DNA of 64,000 nucleotides from Candidatus Latescibacterota bacterium (lineage in GTDB: Bacteria; Latescibacterota; UBA2968; UBA8231), in NCBI GenBank assembly GCA_965248265.1, contig CBDFJF010000001.1, positions 832,001 to 896,000 on the forward strand, written 5' to 3'. The notes beneath the pieces were generated by a model that was not told the DNA's origin, did no database searches, and worked only from the letters and a program-made list of their open reading frames with translations. The position numbers were made by a program, and so were the translations under genes. Positions within the stretch are counted from its first letter, which is position 1; the number at the start of each line of letters is the position of its first letter. Shown here in pieces: positions 41,210 through 46,088 of this stretch.

Positions 41210-42532
41210 TTACTCGCCGAAGTACCCGGCTTCACCTCGGGAATCGATGAACCCCTTCAGCCTGGCCTCGGCGAGATGGACCCCCCTCAGGAGCACCCCC
41301 CGCGAATCGAGACGACGTCTCGGCGCCTCCCGCAGCTCCATCGCGATCACCGTAGCGAGTTCGTCCGGGGCCGTTTCCGGCATCCCCTGCAGTACCAGGT
41401 GGTCCCCTGTCTGCTCGAAGTCGATGGGTTCGCCGCTGACCAGGAACCGTGCCGAGAGCACTTCGGTCTCCAGCCCCCTCATCTCGATCTGCTGTCCCTG
41501 CTGTCCCGGCCAGAGGTACAGGTGCAGGTAAAGGGTCCTCGCCCTGAAGGTGAAGATCCCGAGCTGCATCCACTCCGGACGCTGGATGCGCTCCGAGTTG
41601 TATACGGCTTCCCCGTTAGCCCGCATCCACTCGCCGACCCGCTTCAGAAGCCCGACGCACGGCTCCGGGACAGAGCCGTCCGCTTCGGGCCCGACGTTCA
41701 GCAGCAGGTTGGCCCCGCCGTTGGCGACCTGCCCCAGCATGCGCACGATCTGCACCGGGGTCTTCCAGTCATCGCCCGAGGCTCTATAGCCCCAGTTGTT
41801 GTTCGTCGTGAAGCACGCTTCCCAGGCGCGGTCGGACTCGGCATACGCCCAGATACGCTTTTCCGGCGTGTTGAAATCCTCCTTGCTCCAGGACCGGTTG
41901 TTGATCAGGATGTCCGGCTGAAGCTCGCGCACCATCGCGTTCATCTTTGCGCTCTCCCACCCCTCCTCGTCCAGCGGCGCGGCGCCATCGTACCACATCA
42001 CATCGATCTTGCCGTAGTTCGTGCACAGCTCCCTGACCTGACCGTGGATGAAGCTGACAAGACGCTGCCGCGCCGCCTCATCGGTCGCACATTGATGCCA
42101 GTCCGGATGGTGCCAGTCCATCAGCGAGTAGTAGAAGCCGACCCGCAGGCCCTCCGACCGACACGCGTCGACGTATTCGGCCACCAGATCGCGGCCCGCT
42201 GCCGCCTTCGCTGATGTGCAGTCGGTGAGTGGTGAATCGAACAGGCAGAAGCCTTCATGGTGCTTCGTCGTCATCACCATGTACTTCATCCCCGCTTCGC
42301 GGGCCAGGCGAGCCCACTCCCGCGCCGGGAACGGCTTGGGCCTGAACAGCCCGGCAAGCCGCTCGTACTCCTCTTCACGGGAACGTTGCGAGAGGGAGCG
42401 ATGGGGCGCTGGCCAGCCTTCAGCCCCGGAGAGGGCGTACAGCCCCCAGTGCACGAACATGCCGAACCGCGCCTCGTTGAACCATTCGAGCCTTCGAGCT
42501 CGATCTTCGTCTTCAGCAGTTTGGTCTGACAT
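41210..42532 (-). CDS. Alpha-L-fucosidase (GH29)
   Basis: WFNEARFGMFVHWGLY, GMKYMVMTTKHHEGF, GFYYS..DWHH, VMWYDG nucleophile, INNR, NLLLNVGP. Confidence 0.92.
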   Translation of the reverse strand: MSDQTAEDEDRARRLEWFNEARFGMFVHWGLYALSGAEGWPAPHRSLSQRSREEEYERLAGLFRPKPFPAREWARLAREAGMKYMVMTTKHHEGFCLFDSPLTDCTSAKAAAGRDLVAEYVDACRSEGLRVGFYYSLMDWHHPDWHQCATDEAARQRLVSFIHGQVRELCTNYGKIDVMWYDGAAPLDEEGWESAKMNAMVRELQPDILINNRSWSKEDFNTPEKRIWAYAESDRAWEACFTTNNNWGYRASGDDWKTPVQIVRMLGQVANGGANLLLNVGPEADGSVPEPCVGLLKRVGEWMRANGEAVYNSERIQRPEWMQLGIFTFRARTLYLHLYLWPGQQGQQIEMRGLETEVLSARFLVSGEPIDFEQTGDHLVLQGMPETAPDELATVIAMELREAPRRRLDSRGVLLRGVHLAEARLKGFIDSRGEAGYFGE

Positions 42533-42669
42533 CGCCGACAGTACCTCGGAGGATAGGGCGTTTGATGTTATGGATAGTATCAGCCGACAATCAGGTGGTG
42601 TCGATGGCAAGAACAAGGTGTCACGGACCCGGCAGGAACGGGCGTTTCGACCTGTCCCGGCTGACGCGC

Positions 42670-42875
42670 AAAGGCTGTCCCACGCGATCGGCCTACTCGA
42701 TGAATGGCAGCAGGCCGGCGTGAAACCCATCTGCTACCAGTACCCCATGCTCGACCTCACGGACGAAGCAGGGATTGGGAAGGTGATGGCGGCGATGCTG
42801 GCGTGGATGGCGCAGCAGGAACGCGAGATGATCCGGCGGCGCATCAAAGCGGGCCTGGCGGCTAGTAGAGCGAAG
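42670..42875 (+). pseudogene. Serine recombinase (resolvase) remnant
   Basis: LDLTDEAGIGKVMAAMLAWMAQQEREMIRRRIKAGLAASRA = resolvase helix E; catalytic N-terminus absent. Confidence 0.75.
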
Positions 42876-43208
42876 CCGAATACGCGATCCTGCCCTCACT
42901 GCGACCCTCAGTCAGCGGGACGAGGACGGCGACTGCGATGAACACAAGCAGGTGATGTATCCGTTTCATCGGTCAAAACCTCTCCTCTACTGTCCATCTA
43001 GTGCAGAAACCGCGATCCTCCCGAAATCCTTAGCCAAGAGATTGCCGTCGGTTCGGCAGAAGACGCCTTTCGCCGGAAGGCGGGAATCGCAGTCCTGATC
43101 CGATGGTCCACTGACCAACAACCTGTTCCCACTCGTGAAGCTACAGTCATTACTCCTGCAACGAAGGGGCCGGCGTGTACGAATGTCAAATCAAACACGA
43201 GTCTTATC

Positions 43209-43238
43209 TTGACATTGCTTTCTTTTACGGATTATCCT
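43209..43238 (+). promoter_or_regulatory. Sigma70 promoter upstream of the ankyrin gene
   Basis: TTGACA-18 bp-TATCCT, about 140 nt before the ATG. Confidence 0.65.
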
Positions 43239-43243
43239 TGTGG

Positions 43244-43378
43244 TGTGCTTCGGGGCGCATCCTGTCCGCGGAAAGGGCCGAGCCCACCCGTTTTTGAGTG
43301 GTTGCCTGCCATACTATAGCGAAACTCTTTTCTCGCCCGAAGATGCGGACGCCGGGCAGCCTTCGAAAGGAGTTCGCC
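43244..43378 (+). ncRNA. Candidate structured 5' leader RNA
   Basis: CGCATC(43256)/GATGCG(43342), GGGC/GCCT, CCAC/GTGG, GCCCG(43335)/CGGGC(43353), and a CCTT/AAGG hairpin over the RBS; not matched to a family I can name. Confidence 0.45.
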
Positions 43379-44581
43379 ATGTCTGCACGTCGTTCCCTGC
43401 CCCAGAGCCCCAACCTCGAACAGCTCAAGAAACAAGCCAAGGACGTGCTCCAGGCCTATCGCGCGGGTGATCCTGATGCGGTCGAGGAGTTCGGTGCTCA
43501 TCCTAGGTCCGTGACGGCGCCGGAAGCCAAACTCACGGATGCACAACTCGTGTTGTCTCGCAGCTACGAGTACGATAGCTGGCCCGAGTTACGGCGGGAA
43601 GTTGCGCGACGCCAGTTGCGGGCTGCTTTGTGGGAGAAGGACTCCCAGACTGTACGTGACGTGCTCGCCGAGGAGCCTTCGGTAGCTCGGGATCGCTTCC
43701 CTCACCCCATGTGGGGTGGCCAACCGAGCTCGCTGCAACTGGCAGCCGAGCGGGGTGACACAGAAATAATCCGGATGCTTCTGGATGGCGGTGCCGACCC
43801 AGGGGACGTTGGCGAGTACGGCTGGACCGCTCTTCAACTGGCCGCCCACTGGGGTCACGATGAAGTGGCTGCCCTCTTGCGTGAGCGCGGTACCGAGGTC
43901 GACATATTCTCGGCCTGTCTGCTGGGTGATGCGGAGGCTGTCGCGTCCATTCTGCAGAACGACCCGGATGCTGCAACCCGTCTTGGCCTTGATGGCGCGC
44001 CTCCGTTGCACTTTGCGACTACTACCAGTGTAGCAAAGCTCCTGCTCAATCACGACGCCGCCTTGACGTCGCGAGACAGCTACGGCAACACCCCCTTGGG
44101 GTCAGCAATTGCGCGCCAAGGGAAACGCTGTCGTCCGCTCGCGGAGTTCCTGTTAGGGCAAGACCCAGAGGCGGATGCCTGCCAGCTTGCGGCACTGGGT
44201 TGCCACGACGAACTGCGCCATATGATCGAGAATGATCCGGATGTCGTCGACTACGTTGGCAAAATCGGTGTTCACGGTGTCGAGGGCACACCGCTCCACG
44301 CCGCGATGAGATACGGCGAAGTCGAAGTTGTGCGGATGCTCATATCCCACGGCGCCGATGTCAACCGCAAGGCGAGTGCAGGACAGACACCGCTCCACCT
44401 GTGTCGAAGAGCAGAAATCGCACAGCTTCTCGTGGAGGCCGCCACAGATCCCGCAGCGACAGATGATGAGCACGGCACGACGCCCTTGGCGTGGGCCAGA
44501 GTCGCAGTGGACATTGGCGGAGCATCTCCCGATACAGCGGATCTCATCGCCTATCTCGAGCAGGTTACCCCCAACGCTTGA
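43379..44581 (+). CDS. Ankyrin repeat protein with a short N-terminal helical domain
   Basis: SLPQSPNLEQLKKQAKDVL..LTDAQLVLSRSYEYDSWPEL domain, then ankyrin repeats (GWTALQLAA, GNTPL, GTPLHAA, GQTPLH); AAGGAG RBS. Confidence 0.9.
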   Translation: MSARRSLPQSPNLEQLKKQAKDVLQAYRAGDPDAVEEFGAHPRSVTAPEAKLTDAQLVLSRSYEYDSWPELRREVARRQLRAALWEKDSQTVRDVLAEEPSVARDRFPHPMWGGQPSSLQLAAERGDTEIIRMLLDGGADPGDVGEYGWTALQLAAHWGHDEVAALLRERGTEVDIFSACLLGDAEAVASILQNDPDAATRLGLDGAPPLHFATTTSVAKLLLNHDAALTSRDSYGNTPLGSAIARQGKRCRPLAEFLLGQDPEADACQLAALGCHDELRHMIENDPDVVDYVGKIGVHGVEGTPLHAAMRYGEVEVVRMLISHGADVNRKASAGQTPLHLCRRAEIAQLLVEAATDPAATDDEHGTTPLAWARVAVDIGGASPDTADLIAYLEQVTPNA

Positions 44582-44966: not shown

Positions 44967-46088
44967 ATGGACCGGAGTTATACCGTCGGAATGATCGGTG
45001 TCGGGCGAATGGGTACGACCCACGCGCGGGCGTACGACCTCAACCCGTCGACCGACCTCGTGTCCGGTGCCGACACCGACCCCGAGCTTCTGGCGCTGTT
45101 CCAGGAGCGCTTCGGGGTCTCGGGGTACCCGACATGGGACGAAATGTTCGCCGACAAGCAGCTCGACATCGCCGCGCCCGTGCTGCCGGTGGGTGCCAAC
45201 GCCGACGCCGTCGTCGCCTCGGCCCGAGCCGGGGTAAAGGCGATCTTTTGTGAGAAGCCGCTGACCGCCAGTCTCTCCGATGCCGACAGGATGGTCGAAG
45301 AATGCGAGTCGCGCGGGATCGTCTTTGCGGCGGGCTTGGTTCCTCGGAACTACCCCGAGATGTGGCAGGCACGCGAGATGATTGAATCTGGCGAGCTCGG
45401 CGCGGTCCAGAGCATCAACATCTACGAGAGGCTTGGCCAAGGCGGGTGTCACGGGATCAACATGGCACGCCACTTCGCCGGCGACGCAGAAGCCGACTGG
45501 GTCCTCGGCTGGACCAGCGGCGATGCTCACGGCGACACCGAGGAGGAGTTCGGGGCAGTTGGCGGGTACGTCCGCTTCGGGAATGGCGTCGAGGTATTCA
45601 CGCACAACAAAGAGCAGAACCCTCTGTCCGGTGCATCCAAAGTCCAGGTCATCTGCGACAAGGCGGTACTGTACCGTGACGACACCGGGATGCACATGTT
45701 ACGCAAGTCGGAGGCGGGTGTCGTCGAGGAGGTAGACGGTGTCTTCCCCGTTCGAAGCAAGGAGCGTTACTACGACGACGACGGCTGGACGGAGGTCTCA
45801 TTCGGCATGCAGGCGAGCGTCCAGGCCGTCGTTGACTCTCTAAACACAGGCGAAAAACTCAGGGCGACGACGGGAAACGACCTGCGGAAGTCACTCGAAA
45901 TCGTCATCGCGATGCGCGAGTCGGCCCGCCGGAGGCACACTCCAGTCAAGCTGCCATTAGAAGACCGAAGCCTGACGATGCGGCCGATGCTGCGCCGCTG
46001 GACGTTCAAGGTCACGACGATGGGTCGCGAGGCCTACATGCAGGACATGGCAGCCCACTGCGGGACACCGGGCACGCGACGGCAATAG
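44967..46088 (+). CDS. Gfo/Idh/MocA oxidoreductase
   Basis: VGMIGVGRMG, IFCEKPL, IESGELG, GGCH; GAGG RBS. Confidence 0.9.
   Translation: MDRSYTVGMIGVGRMGTTHARAYDLNPSTDLVSGADTDPELLALFQERFGVSGYPTWDEMFADKQLDIAAPVLPVGANADAVVASARAGVKAIFCEKPLTASLSDADRMVEECESRGIVFAAGLVPRNYPEMWQAREMIESGELGAVQSINIYERLGQGGCHGINMARHFAGDAEADWVLGWTSGDAHGDTEEEFGAVGGYVRFGNGVEVFTHNKEQNPLSGASKVQVICDKAVLYRDDTGMHMLRKSEAGVVEEVDGVFPVRSKERYYDDDGWTEVSFGMQASVQAVVDSLNTGEKLRATTGNDLRKSLEIVIAMRESARRRHTPVKLPLEDRSLTMRPMLRRWTFKVTTMGREAYMQDMAAHCGTPGTRRQ

Follow-up and report, generated by a model that had tools for sequence, protein, structure and literature searches.

A candidate pseudoknotted leader RNA inherited together with an N-terminal protein module in Latescibacterota and other bacterial phyla

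Among autoregulatory systems, the ribosomal-protein leaders are the closest to the element described here. They include the E. coli alpha-operon leader (S4), a double pseudoknot, the rpsO leader (S15) and the L20 operator; the proteins concerned are established RNA binders and the leaders mimic ribosomal RNA (rRNA). Our element is a candidate leader RNA located upstream of an ankyrin-repeat gene in 64,000 nucleotides (nt) of Candidatus Latescibacterota bacterium DNA (contig CBDFJF010000001.1, positions 832,001 to 896,000; hereafter the window, whose numbering is used unless stated otherwise). The product of this gene begins with a helical module of about 85 residues. As in the ribosomal-protein leaders, nested or long-range pseudoknots contain the Shine-Dalgarno (SD) or start region, the RNA is carried by the mRNA of its proposed binder, and one protein would control several cistrons. 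Unlike the proteins of those systems, the module is near neutral, is not known to bind RNA and occurs in fusion with many unrelated C-terminal domains. Neither sequence nor model comparison gives a match to these leaders.

Resemblance to riboswitches was also considered. The ZTP (pfl) riboswitch has two sub-domains bridged by a pseudoknot over a variable linker, and its expression platform adjoins the 3' sub-domain. It controls purine and folate genes, whereas the present leader shows no metabolic theme, differs in helix order and conserved nucleotides, and has no Rfam match. SAM-II, preQ1-II/III and guanidine-III are similar in their translational control and in having the SD within a conserved fold. 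In those classes a single H-type knot of 35-100 nt contains the SD itself. The present leader has two knots, its SD lies in a separate helix of 10-13 bp, and again Rfam gives no match. Orphan motifs such as yjdF, nadA and pnuC, prior to their validation, were likewise exclusive to one gene family and strongly covarying. In the present case the 'family' is a single N-terminal domain spread over many phyla, with up to 16 leader copies per genome.

The leader begins at the predicted transcription start and extends to the ankyrin gene's ATG (match of covariance model R2 at contig positions 875244-875381). It is 138 nt long in the window and about 117-135 nt in most copies. The proposed fold consists of six covarying helices, two of them pseudoknots (PK and PK0), in the order P0-PK0-P0'-PK-P1-P1'-PK0'-linker-P3-P2-PK'-P2'-P3'-AUG (Table 1). 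In the 5' domain, the loop of hairpin P0 is knotted through PK0 with the strand directly 3' of hairpin P1. In the 3' domain, hairpin P2 is stacked within the long helix P3, and its loop holds GCGGAC (43345-43350). This hexamer pairs with GUCCGC to form PK, which ties the 5' domain to the 3' domain. Folded as a single sequence, the window leader is unremarkable (minimum free energy -54.1 kcal/mol against -54.8 +/- 4.0 for shuffles, z = 0.17). The lone leader folds no better than shuffles, and support for the structure comes entirely from comparison between copies.

The window's genome (7.3 Mb, 2 contigs) holds five further genes starting with the same module, at 37-53% identity. Upstream of four of the five paralogues we find the conserved blocks of the window leader, namely GUCCGCGGnAAGGG-loop-CCCACC, the pyrimidine tract, GCCnG...GCGGAC...CnGGC, a purine-rich SD and the ATG; the fifth keeps the 3' half only. 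A first covariance model, R1, encoding P1 and P2 only, recovers five full own-genome leaders at E 1e-11 to 2e-20, plus one degenerate orphan. A further match (L013, R1 E 0.659) was treated as chance. In the orphan (L012, G000:C2:1565248-1565373, + strand, R1 E 1.3e-6), P1 is kept in compensated form (AGGC/GCCU), but the copy has lost both its start codon and the 3' arm of PK, and there is no module open reading frame (ORF) downstream.

Covariation was evaluated in three alignments: A5 (window's family, 91 distinct sequences), A4 (other families of the phylum, 31 sequences) and A8 (many phyla, 74 sequences). The R2 alignments were fitted to P0, P1, P2 and P3, which favours those four helices. 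In A5, 95.7% of cells are paired, compared with 36-55% when the partners are slid; the corresponding values are 92.1% versus 42-52% in A4 and 93.8% versus 40-51% in A8. Changes on both sides are seen in 29/34 pairs of A5 (311 cells), 20/34 of A4 and 27/34 of A8, and in each set 0/500 shuffles were as high. The shuffle control ignores relatedness, so this last figure is not a probability; more weight attaches to the slid controls and to the large number of independent pair types.

PK and PK0 are absent from the alignment model and were therefore not fitted to it. PK is paired in 98.5-99.8% of cells across the sets, with compensated variants GUUCGC/GCGAAC, GUCCAC/GUGGAC, GCUCGC/GCGAGC, GUCUGC/GCAGAC, AUCCGC/GCGGAU, GCCUGC/GCAGGC and GCCCGC/GCGGGC. 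PK0 in general form joins the 3' part of the P0 loop (NNNGG) to CCNNN just after P1; 75-89% of its cells are paired. Covariation is seen at its inner pairs (AAGG/CCUU, CAGG/CCUG, GCAGG/CCUGC, ACGGG/CCCGU, GCCGG/CCGGC), which are of many types, for example GC 28, AU 23 and CG 10 at one pair of A5. Variants of P0 include GCUC/GAGC, GCGC/GCGC, GCGU/ACGC and GCUU/AAGC, and those of P1 are GGGU/ACCC, AGGC/GCCU and GGAC/GUCC. U-G pairs are frequent (for example UG 54, UA 26 and CG 10 at one P3 pair of A5), which fits an RNA of the + strand. PK, P1 and P2 are near-invariant in sequence although other Watson-Crick pairs are tolerated, and about 30 nearly invariant nucleotides are located in and around the junctions. 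On this comparative basis, the element is very probably a real structured cis-regulatory leader. A blind stacked-pair scan of alignment A3 also called purine/pyrimidine helices, which were judged spurious.

An earlier note on this DNA, made from the sequence alone, had already drawn part of this fold. Its GCCCG/CGGGC hairpin is real and corresponds to P2, conserved as GCCUG/CAGGC and GCUCG/CGAGC in other copies. It had also proposed that the loop of this hairpin enters a pseudoknot or a switch. The loop does pair at long range, but the partner suggested then, CGCATC (43256-43261) with GATGCG (43342-43347), is specific to the window copy and not conserved in paralogues or relatives; the conserved partner (43264-43269) lies 8 nt further 3'. 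Three other stems are not confirmed as drawn. A CCAC/GTGG stem belongs to a window-specific insert, is not conserved and competes with conserved pairings, its GUGG strand lying in the linker (43291-43318) and its CCAC strand overlapping the 3' arms of P1 and PK0. Instead of GGGC/GCCT, the conserved hairpin is GGGC/GCCC (43275-43285). A CCTT/AAGG mini-hairpin thought to cover the ribosome-binding site is, like the CCAC/GTGG stem, not conserved in paralogues or relatives, and this site is covered by P3 (43319-43332 with 43365-43377).

Readings other than a regulatory leader were confronted with the same alignments. Double pseudoknots are common in small ribozymes, which would agree with a self-cleaving RNA. 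Rfam 15 gives no ribozyme family match, though, and the helix order is unlike that of HDV-like ribozymes. A non-RNA element, either a DNA operator or an upstream ORF, might be suggested by GASCPRKGP, which an upstream frame has in common in two paralogues. Both a peptide and a DNA site are excluded on account of indels that are not multiples of three and of G-U-containing compensatory changes about 80 nt apart; judged from these alignments, the DNA-site and upstream-ORF readings are close to refuted. A ribozyme or a non-RNA element, taken together, is thus given very little credence.

The position of the leader relative to its predicted promoter is also conserved. As the earlier note had claimed, a candidate sigma-70 promoter precedes it: TTGACA-18-TATCCT (43209-43238) is the sole such site in 42700-43700 (shuffles 0.2 +/- 0.5). 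Related loci have TTGAC-type -35 and TAnnnT-type -10 boxes upstream of the leader motif. Among sequences with a called -10-like hexamer, the distance from its end to model position 1 is 7-9 nt in 35/49 of A5, 17/29 of A4 and 17/32 of A8, with 46, 2 and 42 sequences, respectively, giving no call. Because these conserved boxes sit just upstream, the motif seems to span the entire 5' untranslated region. The predicted transcript start thus seems to lie at or beside the first helix, P0, rather than downstream of the stems, with the RNA running to the start codon. The promoter/terminator scan of 42700-43700 found no terminator-like site.

P3 pairs a pyrimidine tract resembling the 16S rRNA tail with an unusually long SD, and in many copies it also spans the spacer or the AUG. 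The window copy of this helix counts 13 bp, interrupted by one bulge, with a duplex energy of -14.8 kcal/mol; folded by itself, the 3' domain reaches -22.0 kcal/mol. The tract/SD pairing is kept in all copies examined despite differing sequences. In the P3 core, 9/10 pairs are changed on both sides (A5), and own tract:SD duplexes have a mean of -12.9 kcal/mol compared with -10.4 for cross-paired sequences. The folded leader would block binding of the 30S subunit, and the RNA would therefore gate translation initiation. Control of translation by the leader through the SD sequence is accordingly what we regard as probable from the conservation of P3. A U-rich strand pairing with the SD also recalls the fourU and ROSE RNA thermometers. 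These are short, weak hairpins, unlike P3, which has 10-13 bp and -13 to -15 kcal/mol within a knotted fold of 120 nt; no short, marginally stable SD hairpin of the thermometer kind was seen in the window. In one sub-type (L144, L145, L151, L155, L165, L176, L197), the tract ACCUUGAUGC pairs with GCAGAAAGGU; in these copies a 2x2 mismatch interrupts P3 internally, its outer pairs covary, and the SD is a weaker one of AAAGG type.

A leader with no effector at all was also considered. It could keep translation constitutively low, protect the mRNA by its 5' hairpin, or both, and RNA and module would then be found together solely through duplication of the cassette as a unit. The closed state is strongly favoured thermodynamically, P0 is at the predicted 5' end, and the leader has expanded within genomes to up to 16 copies, all of which would agree with this possibility. 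On the other hand, two pseudoknots and a near-invariant sequence across phyla exceed what attenuation needs, and co-inheritance alone fails to explain such purifying selection. We therefore consider an effector-less leader improbable.

The module itself was recognised in the earlier note, together with its fusion to varied C-terminal domains, and both observations hold. Its consensus is LPxxPxLExLKxQAK...AQxVxAREYGFxSW. A HMMER search retrieved 10,443 cluster representatives at E <= 0.001, of which 5,494 remain at E <= 1e-10. In 147 of the 150 representatives listed, the match begins within the first 20 residues. The C-terminal partners are ankyrin, LRR, FliM, FliG, sigma-54 AAA+, BFN nuclease, APH, methyltransferase, T2SSE ATPase, HEAT and TPR domains; they show no common pathway, and none points to a riboswitch ligand. 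No significant match to the module was found in Pfam, NCBIfam or PDB. One weak match below the cut-off was obtained with PF20066 (Glyoxalase_8): the module of the related locus L035 aligns to profile positions 7-56 with 20.7 bits, the cut-off being 23.7. An AlphaFold2 model computed with 29 aligned members predicts four helices. Two or three tandem N-terminal copies of the module are frequent among the representatives listed (proteins P0122-P0270), and a FliM-like paralogue of the window's genome (L002) has two.

Leader and module are tightly coupled, and the coupling holds whether loci are picked by the protein or by the RNA. Starting from the protein, the peptide pattern [DN]AQLVxARE[YH], applied to one genome per species, gave 550 relatives, of which the best 80 loci were examined. 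Four with less than 100 nt upstream were set aside. A full-length leader ending at the gene start is present in 74 of the 76 testable loci (E 1.8e-7 to 1.2e-22); it was not found at L135 and L170, the latter keeping the 3' half. Starting from the RNA, 81 covariance-model matches from metagenome and viral collections were reduced to 78 by removal of L265, L229 and L266, whose 3' side is cut by the contig end, and to 74 by setting aside four with less than 200 nt downstream. The module is encoded at 71 of these 74 loci, directly in frame at 66. The leader thus lies on the mRNA of its candidate binder, as expected of an autogenous leader. The earlier note had suggested that similar leaders precede other genes with this module, and the own-genome paralogues and the protein-picked loci bear it out, with strong conservation and covariation upstream of homologues in A4, A5 and A8.

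The same coupling was followed within the phylum using the 126 leaders that make up all matches of A4 and A5, the module being called by a hidden Markov model of the five own-genome modules (E < 1e-3). A module ORF starts at the last three bases of the leader model in 105/126 cases, and the count reaches 114/126 once broken or downstream module copies are included. The nine additional cases comprise two modules after about 29 extra residues, two behind an in-frame TAA, three frameshifted and two behind a small FliG_C/MgtE_N-like ORF. The remaining 12/126 leaders have no module within 600 nt; three of them are of the SnoaL-like type, and in genome G042 a leader of this type has its module gene about 1 kb downstream. 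Where another gene comes first (SnoaL-like gene or small FliG_C-like ORF), the module gene follows in the same orientation. Across five genomes, 39/40 leaders are by module genes and 39/45 module genes have a leader (G065 16/17, G042 5/5, G014 4/9, G131 4/4, G135 10/10).

Several individual loci deserve mention. In one operon variant (L106, L115, L092), the leader is followed by a 64-96-aa FliG_C/MgtE_N-like ORF and then the module gene, with no module gene within 600 nt of the leader in L092. In another (G042:C1:4411393-4412815), a 336-aa SnoaL-like gene separates the leader from the module gene. At L022:1623-1640 and L102:293-310, from two different genera, an in-frame TAA stands immediately before the Leu-Pro of the module, which continues in the same frame; these could be pseudogenes, sequencing errors or cases of read-through. 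Finally, at L005:1385-1494 (+, own genome) and L170:430-510, the module gene lies directly behind another ORF. The leader there keeps only its 3' half, with pyrimidine tract, P2 with the GCGGAC loop, and SD; the 5' partner of PK is absent. The loop may act beyond the pseudoknot.

Feedback by the module protein and a small-molecule riboswitch, the two mechanisms put forward in the earlier note, are still the two leading options after these comparisons. In the first, proteins carrying the ~85-aa module would bind the folded leader and stabilise its closed state. The nearly invariant core (GUCCGCGG-nAAGGG...CCCACC and GCGGAC) would be the effector site, and the outcome would be negative feedback on all module genes of a cell. 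Promoter, leader and module would then travel as one cassette, with different C-terminal domains joined behind it. We favour module feedback for four reasons: RNA and domain are co-inherited across phyla whatever follows, a module gene is present even in the operon variants, sequence conservation of the helices exceeds the needs of pairing, and the copies reduced to a 3' half keep the GCGGAC loop. The identification of the module protein as effector nonetheless stays tentative, at somewhat less than even chances. In a more specific form of the proposal, this cassette would be a portable regulatory unit. Newly synthesised N-terminal domain would bind the leader of its own or a sister mRNA and shut off further initiation there, and any fused C-terminal domain would inherit homeostatic control. 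This fuller scheme is conceivable, but we hold it to be rather doubtful.

Several observations weigh against feedback by the module. The module matches no known RNA-binding fold or family in profile and structure searches, and it is not basic, with a net charge of -6 to +6 over 85 aa in 29 members. Some module genes have no leader (5/9 in G014, 1/17 in G065, plus L135). The very stable P3 leaves opening of the gate unexplained, and the alternative pairing of the tract with purine runs shows no covariation. Lastly, small-molecule aptamers just as typically show some 30 invariant nucleotides and two domains with a pseudoknot between them.

In the riboswitch option, the double-pseudoknot core would be an aptamer for a small molecule, a second messenger or an ion. 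The ligand would lock PK and PK0, so that the pyrimidine tract remains available to sequester the SD and expression is off. When ligand is lacking, purine runs further upstream (GGnAAGGG, AAGGGAG) would capture the tract during transcription and expression would be on. The N-terminal module would be a protein domain of the same signalling pathway. A conserved structured domain with covariation (A4, A5, A8) and an expression platform overlapping the SD, here P3, are indeed present, as are the near-invariant junctions and the two sub-domains pseudoknotted over a variable linker. The leader is tied to one gene family only, as are several validated riboswitch classes. The module is N-terminal and is fused to FliM-, FliG- and T2SSE-ATPase-type domains. 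Regulatory domains of sigma-54 activator AAA+ proteins are usually N-terminal, and FliM-, FliG- and T2SSE-ATPase-type proteins are often under second-messenger control. Purine runs complementary to the tract exist (about -8 kcal/mol), but the proposed switch pairing does not covary, own and cross-paired sequences giving -7.99 and -7.94 kcal/mol. In addition, the downstream genes show no metabolic or transport theme, P3 is very stable, and the expression platform is identical and integral to the fold in all phyla instead of varying. A riboswitch is possible on these grounds, though we consider it unlikely.

A different shared trans factor could also be envisaged, such as another protein, a small RNA pairing with the GCGGAC loop, or the ribosome, with the module genes as its regulon. 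It would account for an invariant core that every paralogue of a genome shares and for the GCGGAC loop of the 3'-half-only copies. Such a factor would need to accompany the module through many phyla, and no candidate was seen, which makes this explanation quite improbable.

The leader is broadly but patchily distributed and is expanded in the window's family. With covariance models drawn from the window's own genome and family (R1 and R2), matches occur in 49/76 genomes of this family, in 14/18 genera, with up to 16 copies per genome. These 76 genomes make up the whole order, so that the order-level search returned the same genomes and added no range. In the phylum sample, 60/151 genomes have a match, in 6/14 families (f1 38/63, f2 4/30, f3 14/19, f5 1/1, f7 1/1, f8 1/5); the remaining eight families have the leader in 0/31 genomes. 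Lineages labelled on the best 80 protein-picked loci are Acidobacteriota, Verrucomicrobiota, Gemmatimonadota, Chloroflexota, Actinomycetota, Proteobacteria, Planctomycetota, Armatimonadota-type and others. In the sampled phylum of one such locus, strict filters retain the leader in 8/81 genomes, one copy each. A 19-base pattern of the 5' domain matches at least 120 metagenome stretches, and R2 confirms 79 of the 80 metagenome loci listed and 2 of 3 IMG/VR matches. Among the latter, the leader at L337:9049-9177 (+) is full-length (E 7e-16) and is situated close to one end of a contig that is filed as viral; L336:184-259 is a partial leader on a second such contig.

Table 1. Features of the leader, the ankyrin gene and its surroundings in the window. 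CM, covariance model; pLDDT, predicted local distance difference test.
Feature	Position	Strand	Remark
Sigma-70-like site TTGACA-18-TATCCT	43209-43238	+	10/12 matches
-35 TTGACA	43209-43214	+	18-nt spacer to -10
-10 TATCCT	43233-43238	+	part of the sigma-70-like site
Whole leader motif	43244-43381	+	CM R2 E 3.8e-18; CM R1 E 3.1e-20
P0, 5'-terminal hairpin GUGC/GCGC, loop UUCGGG	43245-43248 / 43255-43258	+	98.4% paired in A5
PK0 5' arm CGGG, in P0 loop	43251-43254	+	pairs with 43287-43290
PK 5' arm GUCCGC	43264-43269	+	pairs with GCGGAC 43345-43350
P1 hairpin GGGC-CGA-GCCC	43275-43285	+	paired in 99.7-100% of cells
PK0 3' arm CCCG	43287-43290	+	directly after the invariant A behind P1
Variable linker	43291-43318	+	length and sequence not conserved; the window linker exceeds that of most copies
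P3 5' strand, anti-Shine-Dalgarno pyrimidine tract GCGAAACUCUUUUC	43319-43332	+	pairs with 43365-43377
P2 hairpin GCCCG/CGGGC	43335-43339 / 43353-43357	+	97.6-99.2% paired; 5/5 pairs covary in A5
P3 3' strand GAAAGGAGUUCGC	43365-43377	+	holds the extended Shine-Dalgarno, about 43366-43371
N-module coding region, aa 1-85, four predicted helices	43379-43633	+	AlphaFold2 pLDDT 92.4
Ankyrin gene (N-module and ankyrin repeats, 400 aa)	43379-44581	+	Ank_2 E 1.2e-39
Alpha-L-fucosidase gene	41210-42730	-	PF01120, E 2.7e-81
Serine recombinase remnant	42753-42875, inside ORF 42216-42941	+	Pfam Resolvase E 9.7e-7
GFO/IDH/MocA oxidoreductase gene	44967-46088	+	PF01408, E 2.2e-19

In the window, the 400-aa product of the ankyrin gene opens with a helical part, and its ankyrin repeats begin at about residue 115. 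The repeats score 135.2 bits with Ank_2, for a gathering cut-off of 27.3 in Pfam; residues 1 to ~85-110 match no Pfam family. A non-coding stretch of 650 nt, 5' of the gene, follows the divergent alpha-L-fucosidase gene. The fucosidase and the oxidoreductase on the other side have no evident functional link to the ankyrin gene. A serine recombinase remnant, covering positions 104-142 only of the 145 of the Resolvase profile, is located between the fucosidase gene and the leader promoter.

No Rfam family corresponds to this RNA. Rfam 15 (4227 models) gave 0 matches at E <= 10 in window 42800-43800 and no leader match on 14 diverse leaders from many phyla; two chance-level matches, CRISPR-DR29 (E 0.33) and mir-679 (E 0.55), both fall outside the leaders. 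No description of the leader or the module was found in the accessible parts of the literature, and supplements or unindexed papers may hold one; likewise, 'ankyrin' is counted 0 times in the discovery papers listed. We see a small but appreciable chance that the leader has been described elsewhere, for instance as an unnamed candidate in a supplement. The central suggestion of the earlier note, an undescribed cis-regulatory RNA co-inherited with the N-terminal module, thus survives in both directions, from protein to RNA and from RNA to protein.

As a structured translational leader, the RNA may belong to a known kind, and its tie to a protein domain may add more. If the present interpretation is true, it would represent a large and phylogenetically broad class of structured cis-regulatory RNA, absent from Rfam 15 and abundant in metagenomes. 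The leader would also give a first handle on an unannotated domain with more than 10,000 cluster representatives, with which proteins of FliM, FliG, sigma-54-activator, nuclease, kinase, ankyrin and LRR type begin. If the portable cassette were true, it would be a co-inherited pair of RNA and protein domain over many phyla. The fold of the domain would be new among RNA-binding folds, and no earlier class of autoregulatory leader would have been linked to a domain instead of a protein. Either way the biology would be new, with a new riboswitch ligand or a new RNA-binding domain under feedback control.

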